Virus record (IMG/VR): IMGVR_UViG_3300031088_000782 | Location: 192,001-256,000 of that record | DNA length: 64,000 bases | Direction: 5' to 3' (one strand) | Origin: a virus | Lineage: Duplodnaviria; Caudoviricetes | Shown: positions 3,305 to 59,524 of the stretch, piece by piece | How positions within the stretch are numbered: position 1 is the first letter of the stretch | How the letters are laid out: each line of letters starts with the position of its first letter | Notes under the pieces: generated by a model | The model's database searches: none | What the model saw: only the letters and a program-made list of their open reading frames with translations | Told to the model about the DNA's origin: nothing | Program-made: the position numbers and the translations under genes

Positions 3305-4588
3305 TCAATATTCGGAATCAAAATCTAAACTTTTAAGAATAGAATCTTCTTCTGACAAATTCTTATCTTTTTCAGGAGTTGGAAAATGTTCTTCTTTCCA
3401 TTCAGCGAAACCAGGTAATTTTTCAGACAAAATAGCATTCCAATCTAATCGTGGAGCATTTCTGATAAGAGTTTCGTCGTTATCCAAAGTCCCATTCTGA
3501 GCTTCTTTCATGAAATATGTCAAAGTTTTTGCAGCTCTTTGTCTTTCTTCTCCGCTTATCTCAGCATAGAACAAATTTTTAGAGTCAGCAGCATATGGCA
3601 AATCAGTTCCATTCCAGTTGGTTGTTCCATTGATAATGATACTATCTGTGTTTCTATGTTCATAAACTGAAAATGTTCGAGTATTCCCATCTGGACTCAT
3701 AACAGTATAAGCATTTCCCCATTCTCTACCATTTTCAAAAGGCGAAACAGACACATTTGAAATGTTTTCTCTATCCATTTCTTTTTTCAATTCATTGTCT
3801 GGAAATGCTGTAGCCAAATATAATTGATTTTCGTTTTCCAAACGATTCATAAACCGATCATGCTTAGGAGTGAAATAATGCTCATCCTCACCATCATATT
3901 CTTCGCCGTTAGCAACCCGATCCAAAGTTTTATCAAAATAATTAATTGCACTGTCACCCATAATTGTTTTTCCACTTGAACCCACCGTTTTATTAAAACT
4001 GTTGAAATTCTCTAATTGAGCTTCGCGCAAGCCTATAATTCTATCATTCACATCTCTTTCTGGAGCAGGATCTGGCTCAGGAATATCCATAATTCTGCGT
4101 TGTTTAATTAGCCCCTTTCCCAACTCTCGAATAGAATCTCCACGCCCCTCATCTTTAATCCACGGCATAGTTTTCTGATGTATAGACGGCTTCATATGTT
4201 TAGAAAGATTCTCTACTTCACACCAATCATCTTCGCTCAATTTCTTTTTATTCACAATAGACGAGATTTTTTCCAAACGATACAAATTTTCCTTGTCAAC
4301 CTCGCTCCAATATTTACGATCATCTTCTTGAATCTTTTTCATTTGATATTGAATCAAATCAAAATCTCGATTGTCATTATTATAAAAGTTTGAATTTTTC
4401 TCAATGAGGGAAACATATTTGTCTGTATCAATATTTTCAGAAGCCAAACTTATTTCAGCACCTTTTATTGCTTCTTCTTTGGTTTCGTAATGTTCTGCAT
4501 CACTCATATTGAAACGACATTTATACATTGCTTTACATTGATTTGCATTGCCTGTTTCAGGGTTAATATGGTATTTTACATCTGACAT
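3305..4588 (-). CDS. HCCH-module protein 1 (shared N-terminal module plus unknown C-terminal domain)
   Basis: N-terminus KYHINPETGNANQCKAMYKCRF...HYETKEEA matches three other ORFs; AAGGAG RBS. Confidence 0.8.
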   Translation of the reverse strand: MSDVKYHINPETGNANQCKAMYKCRFNMSDAEHYETKEEAIKGAEISLASENIDTDKYVSLIEKNSNFYNNDNRDFDLIQYQMKKIQEDDRKYWSEVDKENLYRLEKISSIVNKKKLSEDDWCEVENLSKHMKPSIHQKTMPWIKDEGRGDSIRELGKGLIKQRRIMDIPEPDPAPERDVNDRIIGLREAQLENFNSFNKTVGSSGKTIMGDSAINYFDKTLDRVANGEEYDGEDEHYFTPKHDRFMNRLENENQLYLATAFPDNELKKEMDRENISNVSVSPFENGREWGNAYTVMSPDGNTRTFSVYEHRNTDSIIINGTTNWNGTDLPYAADSKNLFYAEISGEERQRAAKTLTYFMKEAQNGTLDNDETLIRNAPRLDWNAILSEKLPGFAEWKEEHFPTPEKDKNLSEEDSILKSLDFDSEY

Positions 4589-4704
4589 TGAAAACTCCTT
4601 ATTTTACGATTATTAAATGTTTGTAAATATCTTTCATAGCTTTTTCTATCTCAAAAAAAAGTCAAAAAAAGAGAAACGAAAACACATAATTATGAGTGTC
4701 TATA

Positions 4705-4713
4705 TGATATAAT
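4705..4713 (+). promoter_or_regulatory. Extended -10 promoter upstream of ligA
   Basis: TGATATAAT (TGn+TATAAT) about 40 nt before the ATG. Confidence 0.55.
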
Positions 4714-4755
4714 AATATTGAGAAAACATTCGTAAAAACAAGACAGAAGGCGAGT

Positions 4756-6849
4756 ATGTTTATGACTGTAAGAGATGATTATCTTCAAAAAATCGAACAA
4801 ATAAAGAAGTTTTCAGAACACTATTATCATAAGAATGAAAGCCTAATTTCGGATCAAACATATGACCTTCTTGTTGAAGAAACCGCAAGAGCAGGGGAAG
4901 AAAACGGATGGACAGAGCATCTTCCTCTTGTTAAAGAAGTTGCCGCTGGGACAATAGATTACGAAGCTGACATTGAACACAAAACACGAATGTTATCTCT
5001 CAACAAAGTGAATTCAGAAGAAGAGCTGGAAAAGTTCATTACAAAACTTAATCCTGACGATGATAACAATTTCTTTATTATCGAACCTAAACTTGACGGA
5101 TTGGCTTTTCGTGTCTTTTACAACAAAGGAAAAAGAGAGTTAGTATCCTCTCGCGGCGATTCTTATTATGGGAAAAATCTCACTCTACGTGCCAACGAAT
5201 TAAATATCGAGGGACTTCCCAAAACTATTTCAAGCACACAAAAATTCGAAGTCAGAGGGGAACTGTTTATCACCAACGAAAACTATGCAAAAGTTCAACA
5301 ATTTAGAACTGCACGTTGGGCTAAGTACGAAACTGAAAAGAAGAAAGCGAAAGCAGAAAAGCGTAGATCGTCAATGACAGCACCTTCTAAACCTTTCTCA
5401 TTACAAAGGTCAGCTGTGTCAGGATCAATCAATGCAAAACCGGGAACCGACACAACCGAAATCATTCTCAGTTTCGCCGCTTATGATGTTCTCTTTGACA
5501 ATGAATCAAAACAGCCCGATACATATATTGAAGTATTGGATTTCGCCAAAGAAAACGGTATCTTAACAGCATTGTCGCTGATGACGGAAATTGATTCAAA
5601 TTTGAACACACTTGAACAAATTGAAGAATTCGGAAAGTTAAGAAATTTTCTACCTTATCCTACTGATGGATCTGTTGTGAAAGCAAATTATACAGAAACA
5701 AGAAAACTCTTAGGTGCCGGAGAAAAGCATCCGAATTGGGCAGTAGCCTACAAGTACGAAGAAGAGGTAAAACCGGCTGTAATGGCCCGTATTGAACGTT
5801 CTGTGGGCAAATCAGGTGCAATCTCCTATGTCGGAATATTTGAAAAACCTGTAGAACTTTCAGGATCGCAAGTCAGTCGAGCAACATTAAACAACGCAGA
5901 CATGATAAAAACTCTTGATGTAAGAATTGGAGATACTGTCATGGTTCGAAAAGCAAACGGTATTATCCCAGAAGTGCTTGCCGTGAGAATCGCTGATCGA
6001 GAAAAGAAAAATGTTGGAGAACCTTACGAGGCACCCACGACATGTCCACAATGCTCTGAAGATTTGGATACACAATCATCAATCATCTGGAGATGCCACA
6101 ATCCAAATTGCTCAAAACTTGAAACAATCATTTACGCAATCAGTAAAAAGAATCTAGACATACAAGGTTTAGGTCGATCCACTGTTGAAACACTTGTTGA
6201 ACAAGAAAAAATTAGTGACGTAGCAGACCTGTTTTCGATGACTCAACAAGATTGGGAAAATTTGATCATTCGATACAGCGAAGCAGGAAAGCCTGTCTAT
6301 TACGGAAAAACAAAAACAGTTACAACACTAAAAAGCTTAGCCAAAGCCCTTGAAGCACCATTAGAAAAAATTATCTCATCCCTGAACATTCGATTTGCAG
6401 GAAGCACATTCGGAAGAAGATTCGCTAAACATTACAAAAGTTTCGACAAGTTTGTCAGCACCAATATTTCTGAACTCACTCAAATCGAAGGAGTCAAAGA
6501 CAAAGCACAAATTATTATTGAAGAATTATCAAAGAAAAAAGACCTTGTTGATAAATACAGAAAAGTTGGTTTTGTCAATCTTGAAATAGAAGAAACATCT
6601 CAAAATGATTCTCAAACTATTTTCGACAATGAGAATATTGTGATCACAGGTGCTGTACCAGGATATTCACGAGATGAGATAAAGAGCCTTATTGTTAATT
6701 TTGGTGGTAAATCAGGCGGAAGTGTTTCAAGTAAGACAACGCTATTAGTAGCACCTGAAAATGAAAGAGAAACAACTAAAGCCAAAAAAGCAAAAGAATT
6801 AGGAATAAAAATAATTACGCCAGAAGAATTTTTAGACAAAATTCAATAA
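4756..6849 (+). CDS. ligA: NAD-dependent DNA ligase
   Basis: EPKLDG adenylation motif, EVRGE, DGSVVK, AVAYKY, OB domain, C4 zinc finger (CPQC...CHNPNC), HhH region, C-terminal BRCT. Confidence 0.95.
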   Translation: MFMTVRDDYLQKIEQIKKFSEHYYHKNESLISDQTYDLLVEETARAGEENGWTEHLPLVKEVAAGTIDYEADIEHKTRMLSLNKVNSEEELEKFITKLNPDDDNNFFIIEPKLDGLAFRVFYNKGKRELVSSRGDSYYGKNLTLRANELNIEGLPKTISSTQKFEVRGELFITNENYAKVQQFRTARWAKYETEKKKAKAEKRRSSMTAPSKPFSLQRSAVSGSINAKPGTDTTEIILSFAAYDVLFDNESKQPDTYIEVLDFAKENGILTALSLMTEIDSNLNTLEQIEEFGKLRNFLPYPTDGSVVKANYTETRKLLGAGEKHPNWAVAYKYEEEVKPAVMARIERSVGKSGAISYVGIFEKPVELSGSQVSRATLNNADMIKTLDVRIGDTVMVRKANGIIPEVLAVRIADREKKNVGEPYEAPTTCPQCSEDLDTQSSIIWRCHNPNCSKLETIIYAISKKNLDIQGLGRSTVETLVEQEKISDVADLFSMTQQDWENLIIRYSEAGKPVYYGKTKTVTTLKSLAKALEAPLEKIISSLNIRFAGSTFGRRFAKHYKSFDKFVSTNISELTQIEGVKDKAQIIIEELSKKKDLVDKYRKVGFVNLEIEETSQNDSQTIFDNENIVITGAVPGYSRDEIKSLIVNFGGKSGGSVSSKTTLLVAPENERETTKAKKAKELGIKIITPEEFLDKIQ

Positions 6850-6906
6850 ATTATTTAGAAAAGTTATATAACTTAGGTGTTTTTTATATAATTGGAGAGC
6901 GCTATT

Positions 6907-7963
6907 ATGGCTAAATTTCATGTTAACCCTGAAAGCGGAGAGCCGGGAGACTGCGCCGCTAATAAAGGCAAATGTCCATTCGGAGGAGAAAATGGATTAT
7001 CAAATCATTTTGAAACACATGAAGAAGCAGAAGCAGCTGGGCAAAAAATTTTACAGACTAAATATAGAAAAATAAATTCATTCAAGAAAGAACAAATTTA
7101 TCATCAATTGACAATAAATGATTTAAAAACTAATCAATGGTTTCAACTGCTCCCCAGAAAAAACGCTGAACAAGTTTTCAACATGCTCAAAGCCAACACA
7201 AATGAACAAGATGCAAATTTCATTCGATCAACAGCAGGCATAAAAAACAGTGATGCAAGAACACTTCGAGGAATAATTCAACAATGACTCAAAGAAAGAA
7301 TTCAAGAAAATCCTGCCGAATGGAAAGAAGGGCAAAAAATAGCAAGCAATCTTACAGGAGCAGAAAATAACCCTAAAAGAAAAGCCTACATTGAATCCAT
7401 CAACAACAAACACTTTGAGAAAAACGATATGGGCGGATCCAAATTCACTGACCATAGACTCACAAAAGCAGAAGATGCAATATCTCTTGCCATAGCACAA
7501 AGAGGCGGGTTGAAAGGTGATGACAGAAACAAACTTATCACTTCCGGAGCCGATCCTAATGCATTCTTACCACCAGAGTCAGGAGTAAGATATATTCAAA
7601 TTGAGGCAAAAGGAATCGAAGCCACAAAAAGCACAGCTGACATGAAAGATGATGAAATTCTTACAGTGCAAGCTAAAGACCCAAACGATCCAGAATCAAG
7701 CTTAAGCTTTGTAGCAACAGTAAAAGAACAACCAAAAACAAATGTAGGAACAATCATCATCGGGCCAAAAGAAGATGCCAATGGAGAATTGATCAAAGGA
7801 ACAGAAACACTCTGGACAATGCATCCCGGATCACCTACTCGAGGAATACGATCCAATGACATCCGAGAAAAAAGGACTTAATGATGGATCAACAATCACC
7901 GTTAAAGAACTTCGAGAAAAATTTGGAAAAGACATTAAAGCAAACACAAAAATAATTGAATAA
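6907..7963 (+). pseudogene. HCCH-module protein 2, interrupted by an in-frame TGA and a +1 frameshift
   Basis: ORFs 6892..7287 and 7429..7881 share one frame separated only by TGA 7285-7287; removing one A from the A6 run near 7868-7873 extends the protein to ...IREKGLNDGSTITVKELREKFGKDIKANTKIIE* ending at 7963. Confidence 0.7.
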
Positions 7964-8075: not shown

Positions 8076-9971
8076 TTATGCCCTATACACAAAAATTCTA
8101 TTACCAGCAGTATAAATAGGTAAGAACCCATTATCTAACATTATCTCTCTATTATTCATTTTAGTTCTGTCGAAATCATTACCAAAATCAAGACCTAATA
8201 ATCTATCTGCACCAACCTTGACAACAGAAGAATTAGAATACTTCTTTTTTGTCTTCAAATTATAATGAACCAAAATCGGGCCATTCGATTTCATTTCATA
8301 AAAACCCAAAGAATTCAAGAATATATTTTTCTTAGTAGTATGATTGAAGTCAACATAACTTACAACAGAAGAAGGTTTTGCATCTTTTAAAAATAATTGA
8401 AAAAGCTTTCCCGAAGCCCCATGAATGATATAATCATCACGAACAGCATATCTAATAAACTCATATTCATATTTGCTATCAAAACGAGATTTGCCGAAAG
8501 TAGCAACAGACATCAGTTGATCATCTTGATAAAGCCCATAACAATAAATCTGTTTTTTAGCAACACCCTGAATATGAAACCTATGCAAGAAAATGTTAGC
8601 AGTCTCCTGATCGATTCTTCGACATGTCAATTTTCGAGCAGAAAGTTTAACAACATTCTTATTTGTTTTCATATTAATCATTTTAAGAATAGCATCCTCA
8701 GTATCCCAATCATAAACCTGAATCAAAGAAACATCATTATTGTGTGCTGCCATAGCTCTTTGATAGTGGTAGTATTTCGTTGGCTTTCTGTGCTTAGAGC
8801 AATTAACTATTTTGCAATTTGAAATAATACATCCAAATGACTTGACAATATTGTGAGAAATAGTAGGATTAATGTCAATTAACAAGCTACGATCATTAAT
8901 ATTTAGATCAAACTGAAATTTACCAACAGGATATTCAAAATCTATATTATATACATCATTACAGGACTCTTTTATTAGTTGAGCAAAAGCTTTGTTTAAA
9001 TTAGAGACTTTTCTGCTTTTTTGGTTTTTCCCATTTTTTAAATTTTCAGAAAATGTTTTTTGAGCCTTAGCAACAATGTCTGAATTCAGCATAACGTTTT
9101 CAAAACCATATTTTTCAATATTTGTCTTGATTCTCTTTTCTTTAACAATGTCTGATTGATTAGGATATTCAACGCCATACTTTTCCATGACAGTTTCCAT
9201 AATCTTTTTCTTAATAATTTTAGAGCCAAAAGGATTTTTTGATCCATACTTCTCCAAATTTGTATCATCTGCGCGTTTTCTGATTTCGGGATCTTGAATA
9301 GCGTATTTAACCCCATATTTTTCAAGATTAGTTCTAACGGTCTTTTCTTTGAATTCATCAAGCATCATAGGATGTTCAACACCATACTTGTCAATATTAG
9401 CTTTAATAATCTTCTGTTTTAATTCATCAGTTGATTGAGGATTCTCTACCCCATAATTTTTTAAACTTGTCTGCTTTCTCTTTTCTTGTGCATTTTTTCC
9501 ATTAATAATTTTAGATGCACAATCACTGCTACAATATTTTCTTTTAGACAAAGGATCTGGAAAATCAAATTTATTTCCGCATTCTAAGCATTCTTTTTGG
9601 TGGATATTTGTGCAGTATTTTTGAGTTGCTGAAGTTGGAATAAATCTTGTTTCGCACAATTCGCAAACTCTTTCCTCTGCTGATTCAGAAAAAGACTTAT
9701 TTCTTAATTCCTGTTCACACTTTAATGAGCAAGTTTTTGAAACCTTATAGAATTCTTTATTGCAAATAACACAATTACGCTTTTTCTTTTGAGAGGCACC
9801 ACGACATTTAGTAGAACAAAATACTTTATCAACCTTCATAGTTGATTTTAATTCAAATTCATTATCACAAACTAAACAATTTTTAAAATGTTTTTTAGCA
9901 CAACGCTTTTTTCTTCGTTTATCAGGTGTAAAAAGATCATTACATACTTCACAACAAATCTGATATTCCAT
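8076..9971 (-). CDS. Homing-endonuclease-like protein: Cys-rich zinc ribbons, KYG repeats, Vsr/PD-(D/E)XK-like nuclease, C-terminal GNAT-like domain
   Basis: Multiple CxxC...CSxxC units; six (E/D/K)-K/N-YG repeats; FEYPVGKFQFDL...LIDINP; C-terminal YEFIRYAV...GASGKLF...SYVD...LGF. Confidence 0.75.
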   Translation of the reverse strand: MEYQICCEVCNDLFTPDKRRKKRCAKKHFKNCLVCDNEFELKSTMKVDKVFCSTKCRGASQKKKRNCVICNKEFYKVSKTCSLKCEQELRNKSFSESAEERVCELCETRFIPTSATQKYCTNIHQKECLECGNKFDFPDPLSKRKYCSSDCASKIINGKNAQEKRKQTSLKNYGVENPQSTDELKQKIIKANIDKYGVEHPMMLDEFKEKTVRTNLEKYGVKYAIQDPEIRKRADDTNLEKYGSKNPFGSKIIKKKIMETVMEKYGVEYPNQSDIVKEKRIKTNIEKYGFENVMLNSDIVAKAQKTFSENLKNGKNQKSRKVSNLNKAFAQLIKESCNDVYNIDFEYPVGKFQFDLNINDRSLLIDINPTISHNIVKSFGCIISNCKIVNCSKHRKPTKYYHYQRAMAAHNNDVSLIQVYDWDTEDAILKMINMKTNKNVVKLSARKLTCRRIDQETANIFLHRFHIQGVAKKQIYCYGLYQDDQLMSVATFGKSRFDSKYEYEFIRYAVRDDYIIHGASGKLFQLFLKDAKPSSVVSYVDFNHTTKKNIFLNSLGFYEMKSNGPILVHYNLKTKKKYSNSSVVKVGADRLLGLDFGNDFDRTKMNNREIMLDNGFLPIYTAGNRIFVYRA

Positions 9972-10049
9972 AATGAATCCTAACTAACTTATTTATATAT
10001 TGTTTACTACTATTATTATAACAATTTTAAAGGAAAGAAAGCATTAATT

Positions 10050-10169
10050 ATGAAAATAAAATCAATAAAAGAAATTGCTCCTGAACCTGCAAGATGTATT
10101 GAAGTCGATTCACCTGACCGACTTTTTGCTGCCGGAGGAGAATTTGGGAATGCTTTCGTAACTCACAAT
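10050..10169 (+). mobile_element. Intein C-fragment (blocks F and G), class-3 type
   Basis: Block F Cys (ARCIEV), block G Thr-His-Asn, +1 Ser; own ATG and AAGGAAAG RBS. Confidence 0.85.
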
Positions 10170-11198
10170 TCTGTTGTTCAAAGAAACATCATTTTCGGTG
10201 CTATTATGAGGCCGGAGAGTTGGCGCTTCCTTGGGATAGACCTGAAAAAAGTTGAACTTTCTTCCTTTCGCGCTTACTCAAATGTTGTTCTAGGTATTGC
10301 AACAGAAATCGAAGATGCGCTAACTGTTTTGCGTTTTGCTCAACAAACAATGATGAAACGTTATGCAGAGATGGAACAACTTGGAGTAAATAACTTTTTG
10401 GATCTTCCAGAAAAAGGACAAGCTTTATTGGTAATGGTTGACGAGGCTGGTGAGCTTCTTTCTCCATCGGGTGTGAAATCAGAAGAAGCTAAGGCTGAAG
10501 ATGAGCTTAAAGGCGAGGCAGCTATGATTATTGGCTCGGTAGCGCGTTTGGGAAGAGCGGCGGGAGTTCATCTTGTAATTGCCACTCAGAGGCCGGACGC
10601 CAAGATAATATCGGGCGAAACTAAGGCTAACCTTGGTGTTCGAATTAACTGTGGGCGAACAGATTCCAACGCTTCGTCAATGATTTTGGGAACTGGTGAG
10701 GGAACAAGAGTAAAGGCTAATCCTCGCGGTCGTTTATATTTGAGAATCTATGGTAGTGGTAATCATGGGCAAGGATTTTTTGCTGACCAGTCTTGGATTG
10801 ACGAATATTTGGCAAGTAAGGGATTGAACCCTGATGGGACAGAAATCAACAGTGGAAAGAAGTCTCGTTTGGCTAATGTCACAGATATGTCTCAGTTCGA
10901 AACTGGCGATTTGGATGCTCGTGAGGGCGTAGACAATTCGTCAATTATTGAGCAAATCAGAGACGAAGAGAGCGATGAGAGTTTCAATAATGTCATGAGT
11001 CAAATTGATGGAGACGAGGAAGAGGACGATGATTGGGGATTCGATGATTCTGATGATACTTCTTCAACTCAACACGATGACGGAAAACTTGGTCGACCAG
11101 AATTGGGAACAGGAGAGAAAAATCCTGATAAATTTAAGAGACCAGAAGAGTCATGGGATCTAGATCTGGAAAGTTTGATTGAAGAAAACAACGAGTAA
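10050..11198 (+). CDS. Split-intein C-fragment fused to the C-terminal half of an FtsK/SpoIIIE-type (TcpA-like) ATPase
   Basis: First 40 aa end in ...RCIEVDSPDRLF...FVTHN|S; then IDLKKVEL, Walker B LLVMVDEAGEL, GRAAGVHLVIATQRPD; Walker A absent; acidic tail. Confidence 0.85.
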   Translation: MKIKSIKEIAPEPARCIEVDSPDRLFAAGGEFGNAFVTHNSVVQRNIIFGAIMRPESWRFLGIDLKKVELSSFRAYSNVVLGIATEIEDALTVLRFAQQTMMKRYAEMEQLGVNNFLDLPEKGQALLVMVDEAGELLSPSGVKSEEAKAEDELKGEAAMIIGSVARLGRAAGVHLVIATQRPDAKIISGETKANLGVRINCGRTDSNASSMILGTGEGTRVKANPRGRLYLRIYGSGNHGQGFFADQSWIDEYLASKGLNPDGTEINSGKKSRLANVTDMSQFETGDLDAREGVDNSSIIEQIRDEESDESFNNVMSQIDGDEEEDDDWGFDDSDDTSSTQHDDGKLGRPELGTGEKNPDKFKRPEESWDLDLESLIEENNE

Positions 11199-11264
11199 TA
11201 AGCATTTTCGCAAATATTTCGGTAAAATAATAAAAGTATAGAAAGTGTTATTTGAGGAGATTGT

Positions 11265-47784: not shown

Positions 47785-47795
47785 GATAATAAAAA

Positions 47796-51005: not shown

Positions 51006-51012
51006 CTACCAT

Positions 51013-51963: not shown

Positions 51964-51983
51964 AATATATTAAATACTTTTAA

Positions 51984-52039
51984 ATTATTGGATTAACTAT
52001 TAAAAATCAGCAAAATTAATTAATAGTTAATCCAATAAT
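51984..52039. terminator. Inverted repeat after tadB
   Basis: 20-bp arms attattggattaactattaa / ttaatagttaatccaataat. Confidence 0.7.
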
Positions 52040-52128
52040 GGTTTTTGATAAAATATTAGATAACAATTATAAACAAAATTAAAACAAATTAAAAGCATTA
52101 TAAACATAAAGAAAGAATGTGAAACAAC

Positions 52129-52722
52129 ATGAGAAAAGAACAAATAGAATTTACCATCAATAAAAAATATATTCTCAACTCAAACGTTGTCAAGCATCAT
52201 TTCGAAAAAGCAAAAATTGCATCATACCTGCGAAATCTTGCCTCTGAAGAGGGAATAGAGCGACACCCTGAAAGAGATCTTGCAGACAGAAGACTCAGCG
52301 AAATAAAAGACTTCGCAGCAAAAACCTTGAACAAATCACGAGCACGCAAAAAAATGAACAAACAAGGGGCGGATGAAGAAGAGATTCTGAAAAGACTTGA
52401 CGAAATTGAACAAGAAAGCGGAGAAATCAAAACAACACAAGTTCCTTTCATGTTCACTCATTTCAAAATCACTCTCACAGCCTGTCCTCCGACGAAAAGA
52501 AGGATGGACCCACCGAATCTCTACCCCACCCTCAAAGCCCTCATAGACGGGCTTACAGACGCTTCCTGGTGGGTTGATGATCAATTTGCAAACCTTGTTG
52601 AAGTATCATTCAAATATGGTGGAATTTCTGGAGAAAAGGATTATTTTAAACTTATCCTTGACATAGAAGAAGTAGAAGACTGTTCAGGTTATGTTCTCGT
52701 TCCAGAATTTGTCAAAAGATGA
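52129..52722 (+). CDS. RusA-like Holliday junction resolvase
   Basis: PPTKRRMDPPNLYPTLKALIDGLTD...WVDD, matching the RusA D-x-x-N...K...D...DD pattern. Confidence 0.75.
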   Translation: MRKEQIEFTINKKYILNSNVVKHHFEKAKIASYLRNLASEEGIERHPERDLADRRLSEIKDFAAKTLNKSRARKKMNKQGADEEEILKRLDEIEQESGEIKTTQVPFMFTHFKITLTACPPTKRRMDPPNLYPTLKALIDGLTDASWWVDDQFANLVEVSFKYGGISGEKDYFKLILDIEEVEDCSGYVLVPEFVKR

Positions 52723-52725
52723 ATA

Positions 52726-53910
52726 ATGATTGAACAACTATTGTTAGAATGGAATCCCAAAAACAAATTTTCGCTCACCGAAGATAAATTAGGATCCCAT
52801 AGAAAAGCATTATGGATTTGTGGAAAAAGCCATGAATACGAATCAGCAATAAGAAATAGAGCTAATGGGTCTCAATGTCCTTATTGTAGCGGAAAACTTG
52901 CTATTGCAGGGGAAACAGACCTAAAAACAACACATCCACATTTGATTAAAGAATGGGATGTTGAGAAAAACACAATTTATCCAAACAAAGTGAAAGCAGG
53001 AAGCAACAAGAAAGTTTGGTGGAAATGCTCTCTCAATCATGAATGGGAAGCTACCCCTAACAATAGAACATCTCAAACTTCCGGTTGTCCTTATTGTAAA
53101 AATAAAAAATTATTATCAGGATACAATGATGCAAAATCTGTTTATCCTCAATATGAAGAAGAATATGATACAGATAAAAACATTGAACAATATAATAAAA
53201 TATTTTTAAACACCAAGAAGAAGTATTGGTGGATTTGCAAACTCGAACATTCTTATGAATCAGCCGGGGAGAAGAAAGTGTTAGGTGAAGGATGTCCGTA
53301 TTGCGTTAACAGAAAAATTCTCAAAGGGTTTAATGATTTGGAAAGTCAATATCCTGAACTAGCTGAACAATGGGATTATGAAAAGAACGTAAGTTTAGTG
53401 CCCTCAGAAATAATTTCAGGGTCTCATACAAGAGTTTGGTGGAAATGCAAAAATGGACATAGTTGGATTACACAAGTGGCATTTCGCGCTACTCACATAA
53501 GAAAATCGGGCTGTCCAGATTGTTCTAAACGAGTATCAAAAGGAGAACAAGAAGTAAGAAAATTTGCCGAAAATATTCTTCAAGAAAAATCCTTAAACAA
53601 CAACAGAAAAATAATAACTCCTTACGAACTTGACATATATTTCCCTGAAAAGAAAATCGCTATTGAATTTAATGGTACCTACTGGCACAGCGATATTCAA
53701 ATACGGAAATCAAGAAACATGTCAGCTGAAGATTATCACAGTCATAAAATAGACAAATGTAGAGAAAAAGACATTATTTTACTCATTGTTTGGCAAGACG
53801 ATTGGGAGAGCAATGCAGATATTGTTAAAAGAGACATTGAAAAAGCCTTGTTGAATAACAAAATTTCTTCAATGTTGAGAAAAACAATTAACGGGGAAAA
53901 AGAGGAGTAA
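52726..53910 (+). CDS. Homing-endonuclease-like protein: zinc ribbons plus Vsr/EDxHD-like nuclease (paralog of 33040..34428)
   Basis: WW.C...H.W...CPYC repeats; ITPYELDIYFP...IEFNGTYWHSD. Confidence 0.8.
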   Translation: MIEQLLLEWNPKNKFSLTEDKLGSHRKALWICGKSHEYESAIRNRANGSQCPYCSGKLAIAGETDLKTTHPHLIKEWDVEKNTIYPNKVKAGSNKKVWWKCSLNHEWEATPNNRTSQTSGCPYCKNKKLLSGYNDAKSVYPQYEEEYDTDKNIEQYNKIFLNTKKKYWWICKLEHSYESAGEKKVLGEGCPYCVNRKILKGFNDLESQYPELAEQWDYEKNVSLVPSEIISGSHTRVWWKCKNGHSWITQVAFRATHIRKSGCPDCSKRVSKGEQEVRKFAENILQEKSLNNNRKIITPYELDIYFPEKKIAIEFNGTYWHSDIQIRKSRNMSAEDYHSHKIDKCREKDIILLIVWQDDWESNADIVKRDIEKALLNNKISSMLRKTINGEKEE

Positions 53911-53911
53911 A

Positions 53912-54391
53912 ATGTCTGATAGATACGTTTATACTGCCAACATGACGAACTTCTTTTCAAGAGAATTATATATGTATAGCCTCGGTGACATTAAATTCAA
54001 AAAACCGATTTCGTTGAAAAAGGTAGCTTATACAACTGCTTTCGTAATTATTTGGACACTTCCTATTATACTTATTTTTGGAATTCAGCTTAATCCATTC
54101 TATTTTGCTATTGTGCTTTTGCCGCCTTTTGTTTTGGGTAATTTTGCTGCTAAGCCTGTATGGGGCGGTAGAGGATTAGTTGATTTTATTAAAACTTTGA
54201 GTGGATTCATTGCTGAACCTAAAGGGTGGACGGATTTGAATGCTACTAATGTATTAGATAAAGAAGTTCTATTCATTGAACAAGAAATTTGGATAAGCCG
54301 ACGAAGAGAATTGTATCTTCTTGCTCAACTGAAAGAGCAGAAAGAGCGTGAGTCTGGAAAAATCAAACCCCGAAAGAAATTGAGAAAGTGA
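53912..54391 (+). CDS. TcpE-like conjugal transfer membrane protein
   Basis: YTANMT...F..E...YSLGD..F..PI, two TM helices; directly upstream of the VirB4-like ATPase. Confidence 0.7.
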   Translation: MSDRYVYTANMTNFFSRELYMYSLGDIKFKKPISLKKVAYTTAFVIIWTLPIILIFGIQLNPFYFAIVLLPPFVLGNFAAKPVWGGRGLVDFIKTLSGFIAEPKGWTDLNATNVLDKEVLFIEQEIWISRRRELYLLAQLKEQKERESGKIKPRKKLRK

Positions 54392-54397
54392 TAAAGC

Positions 54398-55594
54398 ATG
54401 GCAAACAAGTTTAATTATTCAACAAGTATGTTTATTGGAACTACGACTAATGGTATTGAAATGCCTGTATTCTTTGATACTCATACTCCTATCTTCAACA
54501 ACAACCCGCCTGGAATACTTATTACAGGTCAACCGGGTTCTGGTAAAACATTCTTGGCTATGACTTTGACAGCTATTTGTGCAATTATTGGAAAAATCAC
54601 AGTAGTGCTTGACCCTAAAGGTGATTTTCTTGCTCTCAATGAAATTAAAGAAGATGTTGGAGATATAAGTTTCTGGAATCTGGCAGATAGGAGACAAAAG
54701 GGAATATTAGATCCTTTTTATATGGCTGATGATAAGGGTGATCAATTGGATCTTGTTCTCAGTGTTATTGACATGTTTGTGGGAGGTTTGACTGGCGATC
54801 AGTTGACTCACCTTTCTCCTGTTGTCAAAGATGTTCAAGAAATGCATGTTCCCTCTCTTTTGGCGGTTACGGATGCTTTACAGACTTCGCCTCATTCAAT
54901 AGCTAGAAATTTGGGAGCGCATTTGGATCTTGTTAGAAGATTACCTTTTGCTGATTTGTGTTTCGCACCTGGTTCAAGGAAGAGAAAAAACGTTAAGTTT
55001 GATAGTGGTGTTACTGTTATTACATTGATTGGTCTTGAACTTACTCCTGAGTCGGACAATAATAATGTCAGCCAAACTAACGCAAATAAGAAACGACTTT
55101 CTTCAGCTATTTTCTTTCTTTTGACAGACTTTATTCGAAGAATCATGTACAATGATACTTCTGATAGTCCAAAAACTTTAATTATTGACGAAGCATGGGC
55201 TGTTTTATCTACCCCTGCTGGTGCTGAATGCATTAAATCGGTTGCCCGTCTTGGTCGTTCTAAGCGCCTTGCTATGATTCTTGTTACTCAAAACAATTCA
55301 GATGTGAAAAAGATGAGTATTGAAAACACAATTACAACACGTTTTGCTTTTAAAACAGATCCAACTGAGGCTTCTGACATTGTTGAAGGTATGCAGCTTC
55401 CTATTGGGGAAAGTTTTGAGAATGCTCTTATAGGTTTGAATAATGGAGAATGCCTGTTCAAGGACTTCCAGGGGCGTTATTCTACTATACAGATCAGCGA
55501 TTGGCGTAGAAGCTGGACTGAAGCGTTTGAAACTAATCCTCTTGAAAAAATGCGAGCACAAAAGAAAAAACAAGCGTTGGCAAAGAATAAGTAG
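54398..55594 (+). CDS. VirB4-like conjugation ATPase (ATPase domain only)
   Basis: ITGQPGSGKT, LDPKGD, IIDEAW, RLGRS...ILVTQN. Confidence 0.8.
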   Translation: MANKFNYSTSMFIGTTTNGIEMPVFFDTHTPIFNNNPPGILITGQPGSGKTFLAMTLTAICAIIGKITVVLDPKGDFLALNEIKEDVGDISFWNLADRRQKGILDPFYMADDKGDQLDLVLSVIDMFVGGLTGDQLTHLSPVVKDVQEMHVPSLLAVTDALQTSPHSIARNLGAHLDLVRRLPFADLCFAPGSRKRKNVKFDSGVTVITLIGLELTPESDNNNVSQTNANKKRLSSAIFFLLTDFIRRIMYNDTSDSPKTLIIDEAWAVLSTPAGAECIKSVARLGRSKRLAMILVTQNNSDVKKMSIENTITTRFAFKTDPTEASDIVEGMQLPIGESFENALIGLNNGECLFKDFQGRYSTIQISDWRRSWTEAFETNPLEKMRAQKKKQALAKNK

Positions 55595-55671
55595 ATTCTG
55601 ATATTCCTTTATGGAACAAGAACCACAACTACCACTTTATAGCTATTTTATGTAGGAAGGAATTGCTGAGT

Positions 55672-56565
55672 ATGGCATCTAAAGGAAAGAAAGGTCTGAA
55701 AAGTAACGGACTGATTCTCATAGCAATAGGCGTAGTATCTCTTATTCTGTTTGGAGTCGTTTTCTCAGTAGCTTCGAAACTATTTCAGACAGAAACATAT
55801 TACGTTCTTAAACAAGACGTTCCGACGAGAACACAGGTAACAGAAGAAATGCTTGAACCTGTTGTTACATCTGAGGGAACAGCACCAGAAGCAGCTATCG
55901 GTTTAGCTGACGTTCAGACAGGAAATGTTTACACCCAATACCCACTTCTGTCAGGAGATATTCTTACTATGTCTAATGTTGGAGCAATGGAAGACATTTC
56001 TGTTGGTATTCCTGATACTTGGGTTATCACAAACTTCTCAGTAAACGCGGATGATGCTGTTGGCGGAAGAATCCAAAGAGGAACATATTTTGACATTATG
56101 GTCACATCCGATGATGGTTCATTCTATCCTTTTGTCAATGTTCTTGCACTTGACACAACAGTAGATCTCAGCAATGCATCCTCTTCTGAAGCTGCTGATT
56201 CCGAAGAGGCACATGAAGGACAAACCTCACAATATGTTGTTGGTATGTCTCCTGAAAATGCCGCTAAATTACAAAACATTGTCAAAAAGTACAACAATGA
56301 CATCAAACTCGTTCTTTCACCAAGACAGAATGAATACGAGAAACCACAACTTGCTTCTTACAGCGGTAACTTCAAGTTTGCATCAGGTGACGAAACTATT
56401 GCACCAGGACAAGGTGAAGATGGAGAGCAAACTGACTACACATTCACTGATGTTGAACGTGATGCATTCGGAAGACCAGTTGAGAAACTTGAAAACTGTT
56501 CATCAGGAAACTCAAAGGTTGCTGGTGAAGATTGTAAAGACAGTGAAACACAATCTGATGAGTAA
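55672..56565 (+). CDS. cpaB: Flp pilus assembly protein CpaB/RcpC (SAF domain)
   Basis: N-terminal TM helix, SAF pattern YVLKQDVPTRTQVTEEML, GGRIQRGTYFDI, NVLAL. Confidence 0.8.
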   Translation: MASKGKKGLKSNGLILIAIGVVSLILFGVVFSVASKLFQTETYYVLKQDVPTRTQVTEEMLEPVVTSEGTAPEAAIGLADVQTGNVYTQYPLLSGDILTMSNVGAMEDISVGIPDTWVITNFSVNADDAVGGRIQRGTYFDIMVTSDDGSFYPFVNVLALDTTVDLSNASSSEAADSEEAHEGQTSQYVVGMSPENAAKLQNIVKKYNNDIKLVLSPRQNEYEKPQLASYSGNFKFASGDETIAPGQGEDGEQTDYTFTDVERDAFGRPVEKLENCSSGNSKVAGEDCKDSETQSDE

Positions 56566-56584
56566 TAGTTTAGATTAAGCAATA

Positions 56585-56637
56585 AAAACCATAGGGCTGT
56601 AGTAGGTTTGGAAACATTCATACAGCCCTATGGTTTT
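56585..56637 (+). terminator. Hairpin after cpaB
   Basis: 17-bp arms aaaaccatagggctgta / tacagccctatggtttt. Confidence 0.7.
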
Positions 56638-56786
56638 GTCTGAAAATACTATTCTGATATTAAAACATGGAAGCGTGAAAACTTCTAAATGAAAACCAAA
56701 AATAATTATTTCTTCGTCTACCACCACGAAGAAGAGGGTAAGATTATTCAGTAGATCACCCAACTTCTGAAAGAAAAGGGAAAAAC

Positions 56787-58142
56787 ATGCCAGTACGTCC
56801 AAAAGCAATATTTGTAGGGCCAGCAAAGCTTGGCGAACATTTAGAGAAATTGAGAAAAGGCTGGGACTTCGTTAGCATTGTGCCAGATATCGCAAGTCTT
56901 TGGAACGGCCTCAACAACCAGACTATTGATGACAATGTTCAGGTAATAATAACCTTAGACGGATTCTTCAAACCAGATTCGGAAGAAGATTCATCATTTG
57001 AGCAGTTAGTTGCCATGATGTCCCCCCATTGTTTCTTCTTAATTGTGTCTTATATGCCAGAATACGAAAGCCAAATGAGATCAAGAATCAGCTCAGAGTC
57101 TCATGCTGTCGGAAATGGTGGAAATGAAGAATACTTTTTCGTTGACCCAAAACGTCCCAACCTGACAATCGACAGAGCACTTGCAGAATATATTAAAAAC
57201 ACTGAAAACAAAGAAGTAGCCGCTATTCTTGATGGAAGAGAAATAGAGCAAGATCCCGCTACACAAGAACTGCAAGAAGTTCAACCAGCTCCTGTAGCCA
57301 CAGATTATAACTTTGATGACATTGAAAGTGACAAGTTGGGACAGGTTGTTGCTATCACATCAAGTAAAGGTGGATCCGGCAAGTCTACTGTTGCAACAAC
57401 CTTAGCAACATATTTAGCTCATTCTTCAATCAACTCCGTTAAAGAAGGACTAGAAGAAAAGCCACTCAAAATCTGTATTCTCGACTTGGACGTTAGGGAC
57501 GGTCAGATTGGATTCTTAACAGGAAACCTTCAGCCTACAGTTCTTCATATGAGATCGCATGGTATTGATCCTCAAACTCTCAGTGAAACAATCATTTACA
57601 GTGAAAGACTGAAAGTAGATTTGCTATTAGCACCTAAAAGACCAAGACTTTCAGATGATACTCCAGCTGAATTCTACTTAGAACTTATTCAATTTTTGAA
57701 ACGATTCTATGATTATGTCATTTTGGATACTTCTGTGAACTATCTTGATCCATTATTGGAGAAAGTTGCTTATCCGATTGCAGATCAAATTATTTTCGTT
57801 TCAGACATTGTTGTTCATTCTGTTTATTCAATGACACGATGGATTCAAGAGGTTACAAAACCTAAGAGTCAGCAGGGAATGGGAATAGACAAAAAGAAAA
57901 TCGGTATTGTTGTCAATAAATCAATGGCGAACATCAGCATGTCAGGCGAAAAAATCGCTAAAAGTGCACTTGGTCTCCCAGTTCTGACAGTTATACCAAA
58001 CAACGCTAAACTTTTGGCACACGCAGCTAACCTTCAGTCAATGGAGCAAGTTCTGAGACATGCAGATATCAAAAACTCTATCAGGCTATTAGCGCGTCGT
58101 ATCGTCGGTAAAAAATATAAACTTACTGATAACGTGTCATAA
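56787..58142 (+). CDS. CpaE/TadZ-type MinD/ParA-family ATPase with an N-terminal receiver-like domain
   Basis: SSKGGSGKST, ILDLD...GQ, YDYVILDT. Confidence 0.85.
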   Translation: MPVRPKAIFVGPAKLGEHLEKLRKGWDFVSIVPDIASLWNGLNNQTIDDNVQVIITLDGFFKPDSEEDSSFEQLVAMMSPHCFFLIVSYMPEYESQMRSRISSESHAVGNGGNEEYFFVDPKRPNLTIDRALAEYIKNTENKEVAAILDGREIEQDPATQELQEVQPAPVATDYNFDDIESDKLGQVVAITSSKGGSGKSTVATTLATYLAHSSINSVKEGLEEKPLKICILDLDVRDGQIGFLTGNLQPTVLHMRSHGIDPQTLSETIIYSERLKVDLLLAPKRPRLSDDTPAEFYLELIQFLKRFYDYVILDTSVNYLDPLLEKVAYPIADQIIFVSDIVVHSVYSMTRWIQEVTKPKSQQGMGIDKKKIGIVVNKSMANISMSGEKIAKSALGLPVLTVIPNNAKLLAHAANLQSMEQVLRHADIKNSIRLLARRIVGKKYKLTDNVS

Positions 58143-58175
58143 CAGATTTTCCCTCTTAACGGGCGGAAAAACACA

Positions 58176-58220
58176 CAACACAGGTTCCTAGTGGTAGGGG
58201 AGCCTGTGTTGTTTTTTTTT
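58176..58220 (+). terminator. Intrinsic terminator
   Basis: caacacaggttcc / ggagcctgtgttg stem followed by T9. Confidence 0.8.
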
Positions 58221-58315
58221 ATTCCCTCTTTTATCAACACCAGTAGACAAAATTTTATAAACATTATAGAAAGCACTTATAAGGCACAGAGACATTCTAC
58301 AAAAGGACAGCTGAC

Positions 58316-59524
58316 ATGGGCAAATTTCACATTAATGACAAAGATGAAGTAAAACCATGTAAAGCAACTATCAAAAAATGTAAATTTGGAGATAAGAAAC
58401 ATTTTTCAACAATTCATGAAGCAGAACAAGAATTAGTAGAAAATTTTAACAATAAAACTATAAAAACTCTATCAAAGATCAAACCTGACACTTTATCTGC
58501 AAACATCAGTAAAAACTACTCTCATTTGTCAATAATCTTCGACCACATGCACAACAGCGGCCACACAGGAAACGAACTTGAACAGTACTATTACAATTCC
58601 CCTGCTGGAAGGTTAGAACTTGAAAGAAGAACAGGAAAAGGGAATAACATAGACAAAACTTATATAAAAATAAAAGAAATAATTGACGATCCTGAATTCC
58701 AACCAATTGACACAAAAATTAACGAAAACAAACTTAATGAATCAATTCAAACAGGTTATGAAAGTTTTTCTGAAAAGTTTGGCGAAAAAGACAAAGAATT
58801 AGATTACGAATACAGCGATATTGATCCTAAAACAAATGAAATGAGACATGCTTTAGTGGAAGAATCTCACAAGTGGTATCTTAATCTTTCAACAGAACAG
58901 CAGGAAGCTATTTCCGAACTTACATCATCAGGATTTGAAAAACTTCAATATGCTCATGGAATCAAAACAAATTCACCAGCAAATTTTATTTTTGACACAG
59001 ACATAGATATAGATGAATTTTATGAAACTTATGATGGAAATGATTTTAAAGAAGAACTCAATAGAAGATTCTCATCAATAGGAGATGAATACAAGAAAAA
59101 TATTGATGAAGCTTTTAAACATACCCCCAAACTTGAAAAACCTATCATAACATACCGAGGAACAAGTTTAGAAGAAATCAAAGAAATAGCAGGATTCGAT
59201 TCAGAAACAGATGACAAACAATTCACAGAAAAAATGTTAAATGGAGAACTCGATAATCAGAATATTAGTGAAAAATCTAGATTAGCTAATTTACCTATTT
59301 CTTCAACAGTTTCAACAAACATTGCTAAAAGATTCGGTAAAGGAATATATTTAGAAATTAAACGTCACACATCAAGCAGTCCTGTATTGAACAGCGCATG
59401 GGGAAGCTACGAACAAGAATTTTTGACAAACCCGAACAGTAAATACAAAATAATCGAAGCAGTAGAAAGTCAAAATAAAAGAGACAAAGGATTGATCGTT
59501 CGAATAGAAGAAATAGCTAATTGA
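58316..59524 (+). CDS. HCCH-module protein 4 with a C-terminal R-S-E clade ADP-ribosyltransferase
   Basis: N-terminal KFHINDKDEVKPCKATIKKCKF...HFSTIHEA; ART motifs ITYRGT, ISSTVST, YEQEFL...SKYKI; W...LSTEQQEAI helix. Confidence 0.8.
   Translation: MGKFHINDKDEVKPCKATIKKCKFGDKKHFSTIHEAEQELVENFNNKTIKTLSKIKPDTLSANISKNYSHLSIIFDHMHNSGHTGNELEQYYYNSPAGRLELERRTGKGNNIDKTYIKIKEIIDDPEFQPIDTKINENKLNESIQTGYESFSEKFGEKDKELDYEYSDIDPKTNEMRHALVEESHKWYLNLSTEQQEAISELTSSGFEKLQYAHGIKTNSPANFIFDTDIDIDEFYETYDGNDFKEELNRRFSSIGDEYKKNIDEAFKHTPKLEKPIITYRGTSLEEIKEIAGFDSETDDKQFTEKMLNGELDNQNISEKSRLANLPISSTVSTNIAKRFGKGIYLEIKRHTSSSPVLNSAWGSYEQEFLTNPNSKYKIIEAVESQNKRDKGLIVRIEEIAN

Follow-up and report, generated by a model that had tools for sequence, protein, structure and literature searches.

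The four proteins A to D encoded in the window (the whole 64,000-nt stretch of DNA analysed here) begin with the same small His-Cys-Cys-His (HCCH) module, followed in each case by a different C-terminal region. The most likely role of this module is that of an exchangeable handle by which a set of host-takeover or anti-defence proteins docks. As the sequence-only reading of this DNA had described, all four ORFs start with M-x(0-3)-K-[YF]-H-[IV]-N...C-x-A...C-x-F...H-[YF]-x-[ST]-xx-[ED]-A. The genes, their modules and the sequence boxes preceding them are listed below.

3305 to 4588, minus strand: HCCH-headed protein A, 427 residues (ORF; HMM E-value 4.8e-20), its cargo a conserved family with a fold that was not recognised
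4439 to 4588, minus strand: HCCH module of protein A, residues 1-50 (alignments and full-length model)
4643 to 4648, minus strand: TAGAAA box, 60 nt upstream of the gene A start
6855 to 6861, plus strand: TTAGAAA box, 52 nt upstream of the gene B start
6907 to 7287, plus strand: HCCH-headed protein B, 126 residues, with a short cargo (ATG at 6907; HMM E-value 3.1e-24)
6907 to 7056, plus strand: HCCH module of protein B, the sequence modelled with AF2
41725 to 41731, plus strand: TTAGATA box, 39 nt upstream of the gene C start
41764 to 42336, plus strand: HCCH-headed protein C, 190 residues (ORF; HMM E-value 5.5e-22)
41764 to 41913, plus strand: HCCH module of protein C (alignments)
58175 to 58212, plus strand: terminator-like hairpin closing the upstream CpaE-like gene, just before the gene D box
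58267 to 58272, plus strand: TAGAAA(G) box, 49 nt upstream of the gene D start
58316 to 59524, plus strand: HCCH-headed ADP-ribosyltransferase D, 402 residues (ORF; HMM E-value 2.3e-17; phrog_3895)
58316 to 58465, plus strand: HCCH module of protein D (alignments)
59096 to 59512, plus strand: catalytic region of protein D, residues ~261-399, with R, S-T-S and E-x-E motifs

A search of the six-frame translation of the complete 309,534-bp record (G000) with an HMM derived from the HCCH N-termini, as the sequence-only reading had suggested, returned 11 ORFs with E-values of 2.6e-26 to 1.7e-4, the next best match having an E-value of 0.48; the count of four tagged genes therefore holds for the window, while the record carries 11. 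The module occupies the extreme N-terminus in 11 of 11, and the regions that follow it share no significant pairwise BLASTP similarity (best E-value 0.027, between two ADP-ribosyltransferases, ARTs), which agrees with the earlier description of completely different C-terminal domains and, given the varied enzymes represented, of a portable module on unrelated effector-type cargo. No N-terminus contains a hydrophobic signal-like stretch, so the statement that Sec signals are absent also stands. The genes had been regarded as monocistronic, but this fails for the gene of a tagged CCA-adding enzyme outside the window, since this gene and the tagged ART gene before it share 8 nt.

Protein D was correctly recognised as an ART and is one of three among the 11 tagged genes of the record. 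It matches phrog_3895 ('ADP-ribosyltransferase exoenzyme toxin') over residues 261-399 with an E-value of 4e-4, its homologues (38-59% identity) carry PF03496/PF01129, and the R (ITYRGTS), S-T-S (ISSTVST) and E-x-E (YEQEF) motifs are readable, while the protein itself has no Pfam match at E≤1. By profile and catalytic motifs, protein D is classified as an R-S-E ADP-ribosyltransferase (PF03496). Downstream of gene D lies a Gad2-like gene in convergent orientation. Neither protein B nor protein C matched a family in Pfam, PHROG or NCBIfam, and a fold search with the 427-residue protein A gave no informative match for its cargo. An Rfam scan of the window found nothing.

Sequence and predicted fold of the HCCH module

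Alignment of the four window N-termini reveals invariant K, H, N, C, A, C, F, H and A columns. The H, C, C, H and A residues remain invariant across hundreds of relatives, a pattern that fits a metal site, and around 20 further positions are conserved beside the H/C/C/H set in 4,923 clusters from loci of 35-59% GC. The module may constitute an autonomous mini-domain of ~50 residues, predicted to consist of a pair of short strands, a basic loop (Cys-x6-Cys), another strand bearing the last His and an acidic helix. Two independent AF2 models present the same fold: the isolated module of protein B (pLDDT 86.7) has strands at residues 4-6 and 13-15 and a helix at 38-54, and full-length protein A (pLDDT 91.7, pTM 0.85) has strands at 5-8 and 15-18 and a helix at 37-50. 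In the model of protein A the head packs directly on the helical body with no low-confidence linker; thus a bead-on-a-string arrangement does not hold for every HCCH head.

The module is probably zinc-binding, and is probably held by one metal ion at His5, Cys16, Cys23 and His34. The putative ligands, spaced H-x10-C-x6-C-x10-H without a CxxC pair, each lie on a separate element: the first in strand 1, the second where strand 2 ends, the third in the loop and the fourth in strand 3. Zinc ribbon, treble clef and zinc knuckle folds were rejected because the module lacks paired CxxC/CxxH knuckle ligands. Net charge is close to zero (mean -0.3); the best-conserved helix, E-E-A..A-Y-E, is acidic, Lys and Arg are abundant in the loop joining the two Cys, and positions 3-4 are nearly always [KR]-[YF].

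Searches with the module matched no entry in Pfam, NCBIfam, PHROG or the PDB sequences, in agreement with the earlier statement that it belongs to no named family, and full-text literature searches found no relevant paper for the peptide motif and nothing fitting on giant actinobacterial elements. Judged by sequence, the HCCH head is undescribed in every family library searched. Foldseek against PDB and AFDB, together with VIA-align, gave sub-threshold Kunitz, Ada and RNase H1-N look-alikes only. The nearest named fold, below significance, is the Ada_Zn_binding-type N-domain that Bacillota fuse to Endonuclea_NS_2 nucleases, with TM values of 0.45-0.6 over 38-46 residues; for Ada-type domains in general the TM values are 0.43-0.6, all Foldseek E-values being above 1 and VIA Z no higher than 3.3. 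The Ada-type domain (PF02805) of these fusions is a small N-terminal metal domain placed before an enzyme, an arrangement that the putative metal domain of the HCCH proteins would share. There is, however, no sequence match: with a threshold as loose as E≤10, PF02805 matched none of 100 modules, and the full proteins were also negative. The Ada zinc site has four Cys (C-x3-C...C-x2-C), whereas the HCCH ligands would be H-x10-C-x6-C-x10-H.

These properties bear on a reading in which the head is a zinc-dependent DNA- or RNA-binding tether that gathers repair enzymes, nucleases and modifying enzymes at the nucleic acid of the element or host, or by which they travel on transferred DNA. Nucleic acids are the target of many cargoes (CCA-adding enzyme, Rnl1-type RNA ligase, 2H-SAK, HD, RNase_T, YqaJ), the inter-cysteine loop is basic, the nuclease-borne Ada-type N-domains are the nearest fold (TM 0.45-0.6), a weak resemblance to the RNase H1 N-terminal hybrid-binding domain recurs, and the tandem copies described below are typical of nucleic-acid-binding modules. 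The near-zero charge and acidic helix nevertheless argue against a tether, as do the absence of a PF02805 match, the different ligand pattern and the peptidase, Fic and Zeta cargoes, which need no nucleic acid, and every structural match is below significance. We consider nucleic-acid tethering rather unlikely.

Cargo domains and exchange of heads

Each protein combines one head with at most one recognisable cargo domain. The repertoire includes ADPrib_exo_Tox, ART-PolyVal, 2H-SAK, LPD1, ATLF, Zeta_toxin, Fic and RNase_T domains, as well as YqaJ, Peptidase_M78, DUF6782, M48, RNA_lig_T4_1, HD and the CCA-adding enzyme. The family formed by the cargo of protein A comprises 101 clusters, 63 with the module at the N-terminus and 64 with it anywhere; the 37 others have no HCCH match, and most of them bear different, non-homologous heads. 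The tree of this cargo contains at least four well-supported gains or losses of the module (13 by parsimony). That one orthologous cargo bears HCCH in certain elements but a non-homologous head elsewhere indicates that heads have been swapped, and comparison of these sequences supports the behaviour expected of an address or adaptor domain. A 495-kb sister contig bears another head (DKNGxxTTVYRK) on at least four different cargoes, including an Arr-like ART; no upstream motif common to the DKNG-headed genes of L046 was seen. Independent replacement by other conserved heads suggests that some head is required.

The upstream T-TAGA(A/G)A box

A T-TAGA[AGT]A box lies 37-78 nt upstream of 36 of 45 HCCH genes from elements of 35-59% GC. 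In an enrichment test that used crude gene calls, the box preceded 25 of 34 HCCH ORFs and 54 of 369 other ORFs (Fisher p 8e-13), and in high-GC loci nearly all copies of the 7-mer precede an HCCH gene. This conserved element before most HCCH genes suggests, at the level of sequence, a regulon. Each head-plus-cargo gene would usually form its own transcription unit behind a T-TAGA(A/G)A box, and the sharing of one box makes the gene set look co-regulated.

Two further explanations take in the association of box and head. A promoter-plus-leader-domain unit may be copied before new genes, the head being a well-expressed, well-folding start with no targeting role: box and head do travel together, and the N-terminal position would follow from the mechanism. 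Conservation of H/C/C/H and ~20 other positions in 4,923 clusters spanning 35-59% GC speaks against such an inherited cassette, as does the apparent requirement for some head, and we regard it as very improbable. Alternatively, a common inhibitor, chaperone or protease adaptor could hold the head and restrain dangerous enzymes in the producing cell by keeping them inactive or shortening their lifetime, for instance if cleavage after Lys3 exposed a Tyr/Phe N-degron for ClpS. Toxic cargoes (ART, Fic, Zeta, nucleases) for which no adjacent immunity gene was noticed around the window genes, the [KR]-[YF] pair, the apparent co-regulation and a ClpS gene among the HCCH genes of one relative are compatible with such control. 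This evidence is purely circumstantial, however, ClpS was noticed at that one locus, and cleavage after Lys3 would destroy the domain, whose first strand spans residues 4-6. Control of this kind is improbable, and docking on a common partner remains the preferred function.

Distribution of the module

At E≤1e-3, 4,923 metagenome protein clusters match the module, nearly always at residues 1-50, and it falls within the first 20 residues in 148 of the top 150 clusters. Massive expansion of the module marks giant contigs (345 to 828 kb); the searched cellular genomes, plasmids and phages contain few copies or none. The complete 344,889-bp sister element G405, bounded by inverted terminal repeats, encodes 13 N-terminal copies, and dense clusters were found on a 63-kb contig (at least seven copies in 20 kb), an 828-kb contig (at least 11 in 20 kb) and a MAG contig (at least eight in 21 kb). 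Some proteins carry two or three modules in tandem, others are built as module-coiled coil-module, and in two proteins the module is solely C-terminal.

An alignment-based locus search found matches in four Actinomycetota MAGs and one IMG/VR record; searches for related loci with single HCCH proteins as query gave no match, and neither did 400 other Actinomycetota genomes contain the module. Actinomycetota MAGs also provide a single chromosomal copy in an ordinary context, with neither box nor mobile surroundings, and this lone copy counts against a strict N-terminal export signal and against the docking explanation. With tblastn, 50,697 sequenced phages and 72,556 plasmids gave only chance-level matches to the module (two Martelella, E-value 0.9); its absence from these plasmids, many of which have a type IV secretion system (T4SS), weighs against docking linked to transfer.

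Transfer-type genes of the carrier elements

The record had been described as an element with conjugation or pilus machinery, and both T4SS-like and Tad-like genes are indeed present. A Pfam scan of the window located the following.

46879 to 58142, plus strand: Tad-like and T4SS-like gene block
46879 to 47784 and 51013 to 51963, plus strand: T2SSF genes
47796 to 51005, plus strand: T2SSE ATPase gene with an intein
54398 to 55594, plus strand: VirB4-like AAA_10 ATPase gene
55663 to 56565, plus strand: RcpC/CpaB-like gene
56787 to 58142, plus strand: CpaE/MinD-like ATPase gene

Both giant records, G000 and G405, hold VirB4-like AAA_10, T2SSE/T2SSF, CpaB/CpaE-like and split FtsK-like genes, the latter being split by inteins. 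In one relative an HCCH gene lies within a T4SS-type cluster of TraG/TcpC/TrbL-like genes.

If the carriers were instead giant phages with unrecognisable structural genes, the head could load enzymes into the capsid for injection, as does the T4 capsid-targeting sequence (CTS) or a MuF fusion. The CTS of Alt and the internal proteins and the MuF effectors are likewise N-terminal addresses on a polymorphic set that includes an ART, and variable internal-protein genes of T4 also travel with small promoter cassettes. IMG/VR lists both giant records as viruses, and the matching ESM Atlas clusters are labelled Viruses/Uroviricota. The ART cargo parallels T4 Alt (PMC5512222). The record, moreover, represents only 45% of its 681,645-bp contig, ENA ERZ27247443 k141_1824489, so virion genes could lie outside it. 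The CTS is a ~10-residue peptide cut off by the prohead protease, whereas HCCH is a folded 50-residue putative metal domain, and the terminase (TerL PF03354, PF03237, PF17289), portal (PF04860) and HK97 capsid (PF05065) families had no match in G000 or in the complete 345-kb G405, which carry T4SS-type genes instead. Together with the negative search of sequenced phages, this makes virion packaging improbable.

Proposed role of the HCCH head

The setting would be a clade of uncultivated mobile elements, giant in size (0.2 to 0.8 Mb) and equipped with T4SS-like and Tad-like genes, where many effector enzymes with a single domain bear HCCH as an exchangeable head. We infer that the head docks all tagged enzymes onto one common partner; in the preferred version, the candidate partner lies in, or travels with, the DNA-transfer process of the element, and the tagged enzymes would then act at the earliest stage in the new host. 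Taken as a whole, a putative metal mini-domain serving as interchangeable effector head of a box-linked set and docking on one common partner is, on balance, the probable explanation.

Delivery of the tagged proteins through the T4SS-like machinery is plausible. The earlier proposal of an address tag is partly supported in that head swapping fits an address or adaptor, but copies in tandem or at the C-terminus fit a binding domain and speak against an export signal bound strictly to the N-terminus. Known T4SS signals are C-terminal or internal. For the CCA-adding enzyme, RNA ligase and 2H phosphoesterase cargoes, action in the producing cell could equally be possible. A bolder version envisages a dedicated delivery route of giant Gram-positive-type elements, in which a T4SS-like or FtsK-like machine reads the folded N-terminal putative metal signal, an element-specific promoter (T-TAGARA) drives an early regulon, and non-homologous heads (DKNG..TTVYRK, MCxxGGPRC) do the same job in rival lineages; it is tentative and, in our estimate, unlikely.

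Even as a mere binding domain, the module would represent a widespread, undescribed putative metal-binding fold with an unusual ligand arrangement. If it is an address or docking domain, the head would mark the entire set of effectors in a large clade of giant elements that is still unstudied, and would point to a new type of recognition signal with a matching class of promoter. With thousands of tagged proteins, many with unrecognised folds, it would permit a one-step harvest of candidate anti-defence and host-takeover enzymes.

Comparison with known systems

Polymorphic toxins and HCCH proteins both join a constant N-terminal head to variable C-terminal enzyme cargo, and the occurrence of the same cargo under alternative heads is a further toxin-like feature. 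In contrast with polymorphic toxins, no secretion system is tied to the HCCH head, repeats and pre-toxin domains are missing, adjacent immunity genes were not noticed and the cargoes include repair-type enzymes. The head matched none of the known trafficking domains (T5SS, T6SS, T7SS, Sec) in Pfam or NCBIfam, and no signal peptide is evident.

The polyvalent proteins (Iyer, Burroughs, Anand, de Souza and Aravind 2017; PMC5512222) combine 2-15 disparate domains per polypeptide, with effector domains proposed to be delivered with the invading DNA and to act early in invasion; a keyword search of that article found no mention of a head domain of the HCCH kind. Both groups draw on a common pool of ART-PolyVal, 2H-SAK, LPD1, ATLF-like/M78 metallopeptidases, pol-beta NTase and RNase-type nucleases, and both reside on invasive elements with T4SS-type genes. 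The HCCH enzymes, however, are separate proteins sharing one common head, unlike the multi-domain polypeptides, and the tagged set may thus be viewed as the unbundled counterpart of the polyvalent proteins.

Tagged genes of the record

The sequence-only reading had grouped four window genes by a common His-Cys-Cys-His (HCCH) motif at the N-terminus, and both the coordinates and the position of the motif were reproduced:

3305-4588, minus strand: gene A
6907-7287, plus strand: gene B
41764-42336, plus strand: gene C
58316-59524, plus strand: gene D, encoding an ADP-ribosyltransferase (ART)

The window spans positions 192,001-256,000 of a 309,534-bp record (35% GC, IMG/VR class "provirus"). With an HMM built from the N-termini, a scan of the entire record, translated in all six frames, retrieved 11 tagged ORFs with E values of 2.6e-26 to 1.7e-4, all with the module at the extreme N-terminus. 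The next-best match had an E value of 0.48, and chance is therefore excluded. The regions following the module (the cargoes) share no significant pairwise similarity among the 11 proteins, which bears out the proposal of completely different C-terminal domains, while the assignment of 58316-59524 as an ART stands, since it matches phrog_3895 and its homologues have PF03496/PF01129. Recognisable cargoes comprise three ARTs (one in the window) and a CCA-adding enzyme (PF01743); the remaining tagged proteins of the record have none. In the part of the record beyond the window, the gene for one tagged ART (G000:C1 167218-168138, record coordinates) overlaps that of the tagged CCA-adding enzyme (168131-169564) by 8 nt; the latter gene lacks an upstream box (see below) of its own, and Asn replaces the fourth ligand His in its product. 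Convergent to gene D lies a gene (59840-61474, minus strand) with a precomputed Pfam match to PF26128 (Gad2), which we take to be the family of a phage anti-Gabija protein and which would fit an anti-defence neighbourhood.

Sequence family and fold of the HCCH module

Neither the PDB sequences nor the models of Pfam, PHROGs and NCBIfam contain a match to the module; the sequence-only reading likewise recognised no named family in it. A profile of the 11 copies retrieved 4,923 proteins at E<=1e-3 (640 at E<=1e-10) from 1.84 billion cluster representatives. Among the 150 best-scoring of these 4,923, a single N-terminal module is present in 142, two or three modules in six (including three small proteins with a module-coiled coil-module layout) and an exclusively C-terminal module in two. 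The consensus is M-x-K-[YF]-H-[IV]-N-P-E-T-G-x4-C-x-A-x4-C-[PRK]-[FY]-G-G-x-x-G-x-x-N-H-[YF]-x-[TS]-K-E-E-A-x-x-A-Y-E, followed by a weaker K-[YH]-G...K-K patch; the two His, the two Cys and the E-E-A helix Ala do not vary. Judging from this residue conservation, the module would bind a metal.

AlphaFold2 modelling from a 100-sequence alignment gave a confident small fold (pLDDT 86.7): residues 4-6 and 13-15 form strands, a further short strand lies at the final His, and residues 38-54 form a helix. This fold recurs in a second model, that of the full 427-aa protein A. Each of the four putative ligands comes from a separate structural element and no CxxC knuckle is present, so that a classical zinc ribbon or treble clef is ruled out. 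Structure searches with the module model returned no significant match, the recurrent weak neighbours, all non-significant, being Kunitz domains, the RNase H1 N-domain and Ada-type zinc domains, some of the last fused to Endonuclea_NS_2 nucleases of Bacillota. A rival explanation, in which the head is a nucleic-acid tether, draws on the Ada-like resemblance, a basic Cys loop in the head and cargoes that act on nucleic acids, whereas the module is neutral (net charge ~0) and its conserved helix is acidic.

Exchange of heads and cargoes

In 179 relatives, Pfam domains found after the head are ADPrib_exo_Tox, ART-PolyVal, 2H-SAK, LPD1, ATLF, Zeta_toxin, Fic, RNase_T, YqaJ, Peptidase_M78, DUF6782, Peptidase_M48, RNA_lig_T4_1, HD and NTP_transf_2. 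The cargo of gene A (3305-4588) itself belongs to a conserved family; its members, on contigs reaching 828 kb, fall into 101 clusters, of which 63 have an N-terminal HCCH and 64 the module at any position. The other 37 have no HCCH match, and most of them carry other conserved, non-homologous heads, such as MCxxGGPRCxxHL, PYKHADGSNCWTKDCRLGH, DKNGxxTTVYRK and NGKEY..GGNYGSW. On a maximum-likelihood cargo tree the HCCH label changes at least four times over well-supported branches (13 times by parsimony), and clades with HCCH contain nested members with other heads. The DKNG head occurs on at least four different cargoes of a 495-kb contig (L046), including an Arr-like ART and an RlaP nucleotidyltransferase; no HCCH was found in the 21 kb of this contig examined.

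DKNG-headed genes of L046 (common N-terminus I-V-D-K-N-G-K-x-T-T-V-Y-R-K-P)
8702-9289, minus strand
10001-11311
11367-12263
19441-20814, minus strand

This set includes an orthologue of gene A. A third type of head, M-C-x-x-G-G-P-R-C-A-x-H-L, at the N-termini of gene A cargo family members P0193, P0196, P0198, P0200 and P0204, is Cys/His-rich, as is HCCH. L046 also encodes four large proteins (529-950 aa) with a near-identical type IV pilin-like N-terminus, AENSIMQTI.IAVSAILIAAGLVTAPGLINNARDNNA, which resemble giant pilin-like proteins whose bodies vary:

1010-2680, minus strand: large pilin-like gene
6370-7959, minus strand: large pilin-like gene
13724-16204, minus strand: large pilin-like gene
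16285-19137, minus strand: large pilin-like gene

The pairing of one head with many cargoes and of one cargo with many heads is what marks an adaptor or address domain. A rival explanation of the shared N-termini holds that the head is a functionless inherited 5' cassette.

A box upstream of HCCH genes

The motif T-TAGA[A/G/T]A lies 37-78 nt ahead of the module in 36 of 45 HCCH genes; the genes come from seven independent elements with GC contents of 35-59% (G000, the whole record; G405, a sister element; and L030, L031, L035, L037 and L038). Its positions in the window are:

4643-4648, minus strand: box of gene A
6855-6861: box of gene B
41725-41731: box of gene C
58267-58272: box of gene D

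At -95 to -15, 25/34 HCCH ORFs have the 6-mer, compared with 54/369 of the remaining ORFs (odds ratio 16, Fisher p 8e-13); these figures rest on crude gene calls and on a motif noticed post hoc. Specificity is lower in the AT-rich record, where 9/10 HCCH ORFs and 44/269 others have it; the 7-mer is rare in high-GC loci, where it precedes an HCCH ORF in 4/4 (L030) and 8/12 (L031) occurrences. A terminator-like hairpin often lies just 5' of the box, as at 58175-58212 before gene D. The box is a candidate for a dedicated, element-specific promoter or operator, in which case the HCCH genes would form a regulon of stand-alone units.

Distribution and carriers

The module is rare in cells. Within a sample of the phylum Actinomycetota it matched one of 401 genomes, the query MAG itself, and tblastn searches of 72,556 plasmids and of 50,697 phages did not find it. 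Four Actinomycetota MAGs each keep one degenerate copy in an ordinary chromosomal context, next to an RNase T gene; in one of them (L034 10001-10537, 69% GC) it forms a 178-aa protein encoded immediately 3' of the RNase_T gene, with no box upstream. The chromosomal copy could represent the module's cellular ancestor or else a domesticated form.

On giant uncultivated contigs the module is strongly expanded, with 13 copies on IMGVR_UViG_3300045988_179014 (G405; 344,889 bp, inverted terminal repeats). On a 63-kb and an 828-kb contig, stretches of 20 kb contain at least seven and at least 11 copies, respectively, and 21 kb of one GCA_020049675.1 contig contain at least eight. The 309.5-kb record is part of a 681,645-bp phyllosphere metagenome contig (ENA ERZ27247443 k141_1824489), which extends ~359 kb past its start and ~13 kb past its end. 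Orthologues of one tagged protein reside on contigs of 495, 573, 683, 728 and 828 kb, and the carriers therefore seem to form a clade, either of very large elements or of very small genomes. The HCCH gene cluster of GCA_020049675.1 (L035, contig JAHZTT010000015.1) is interspersed with genes for SecY, ClpS, a PNKP-like kinase/phosphatase, SIR2, Peptidase_M50B and an MscS-like channel, which look cell-like on an element otherwise of the same type.

Both the record and G405 encode a VirB4-like AAA_10 ATPase, several T2SSE ATPases and a split FtsK-like ATPase. The FtsK/SpoIIIE-like ORFs (G000:C1 202170-202595, about 10170-10595 of the window; G405:C1 62768-63193) both begin past the Walker A region (profile positions 53-219). 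TadB/C-like, CpaB-like and CpaE-like genes lie in the window, and a TraG/TcpC/TrbL-like cluster encloses the HCCH gene of one relative. Within the Tad/T4SS-like block, 52726-53910 (plus strand) encodes a 394-aa protein in which the DUF4379 repeat ("probable treble clef zinc finger") occurs four times (E 1.3e-61); comparable DUF4379 proteins are encoded on a 220-kb contig (L047). Three terminase families, one portal family and the HK97 capsid family have no match in the record or G405. On present evidence, and despite the viral labels of such sequences in IMG/VR and the ESM Atlas, the T4SS-like and Tad-like genes and the lack of terminase, portal and capsid matches place this giant mobile element, whose type is not settled, nearer to conjugative elements than to tailed phages.

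Proposed role and relation to known systems

The best-supported reading, which we consider somewhat probable, is that HCCH is a swappable docking domain that brings co-regulated effector enzymes to one partner; a rival would make the head a handle for a common inhibitor or for degradation. A strict N-terminal signal is disfavoured by the tandem and C-terminal copies, by one AlphaFold2 model (427-aa protein A) in which the head packs tightly against the protein body, by cargoes for which the producing cell could itself be the site of action and by the existence of a chromosomal copy. The preferred version of the docking reading couples it to the DNA-transfer process, a tentative and rather improbable extension that rests on the range of cargoes, on the T4SS contexts and on the failure to find virion genes, the last of which also speaks against the rival in which the head is a virion-packaging signal.

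HCCH proteins share the already known plan of a constant head and a variable effector with polymorphic toxins, T4 CTS proteins, MuF fusions and polyvalent proteins. The last are proposed by Iyer et al. (PMC5512222) to be delivered together with invading DNA, and their domain repertoire as described there overlaps that of HCCH cargoes; in HCCH proteins, by contrast, these domains are unbundled, one per protein, each under the common head. As far as the literature was searched, it describes neither the HCCH domain with its ligand arrangement, nor the promoter-like box linked to it, nor the exchange of heads between giant elements.
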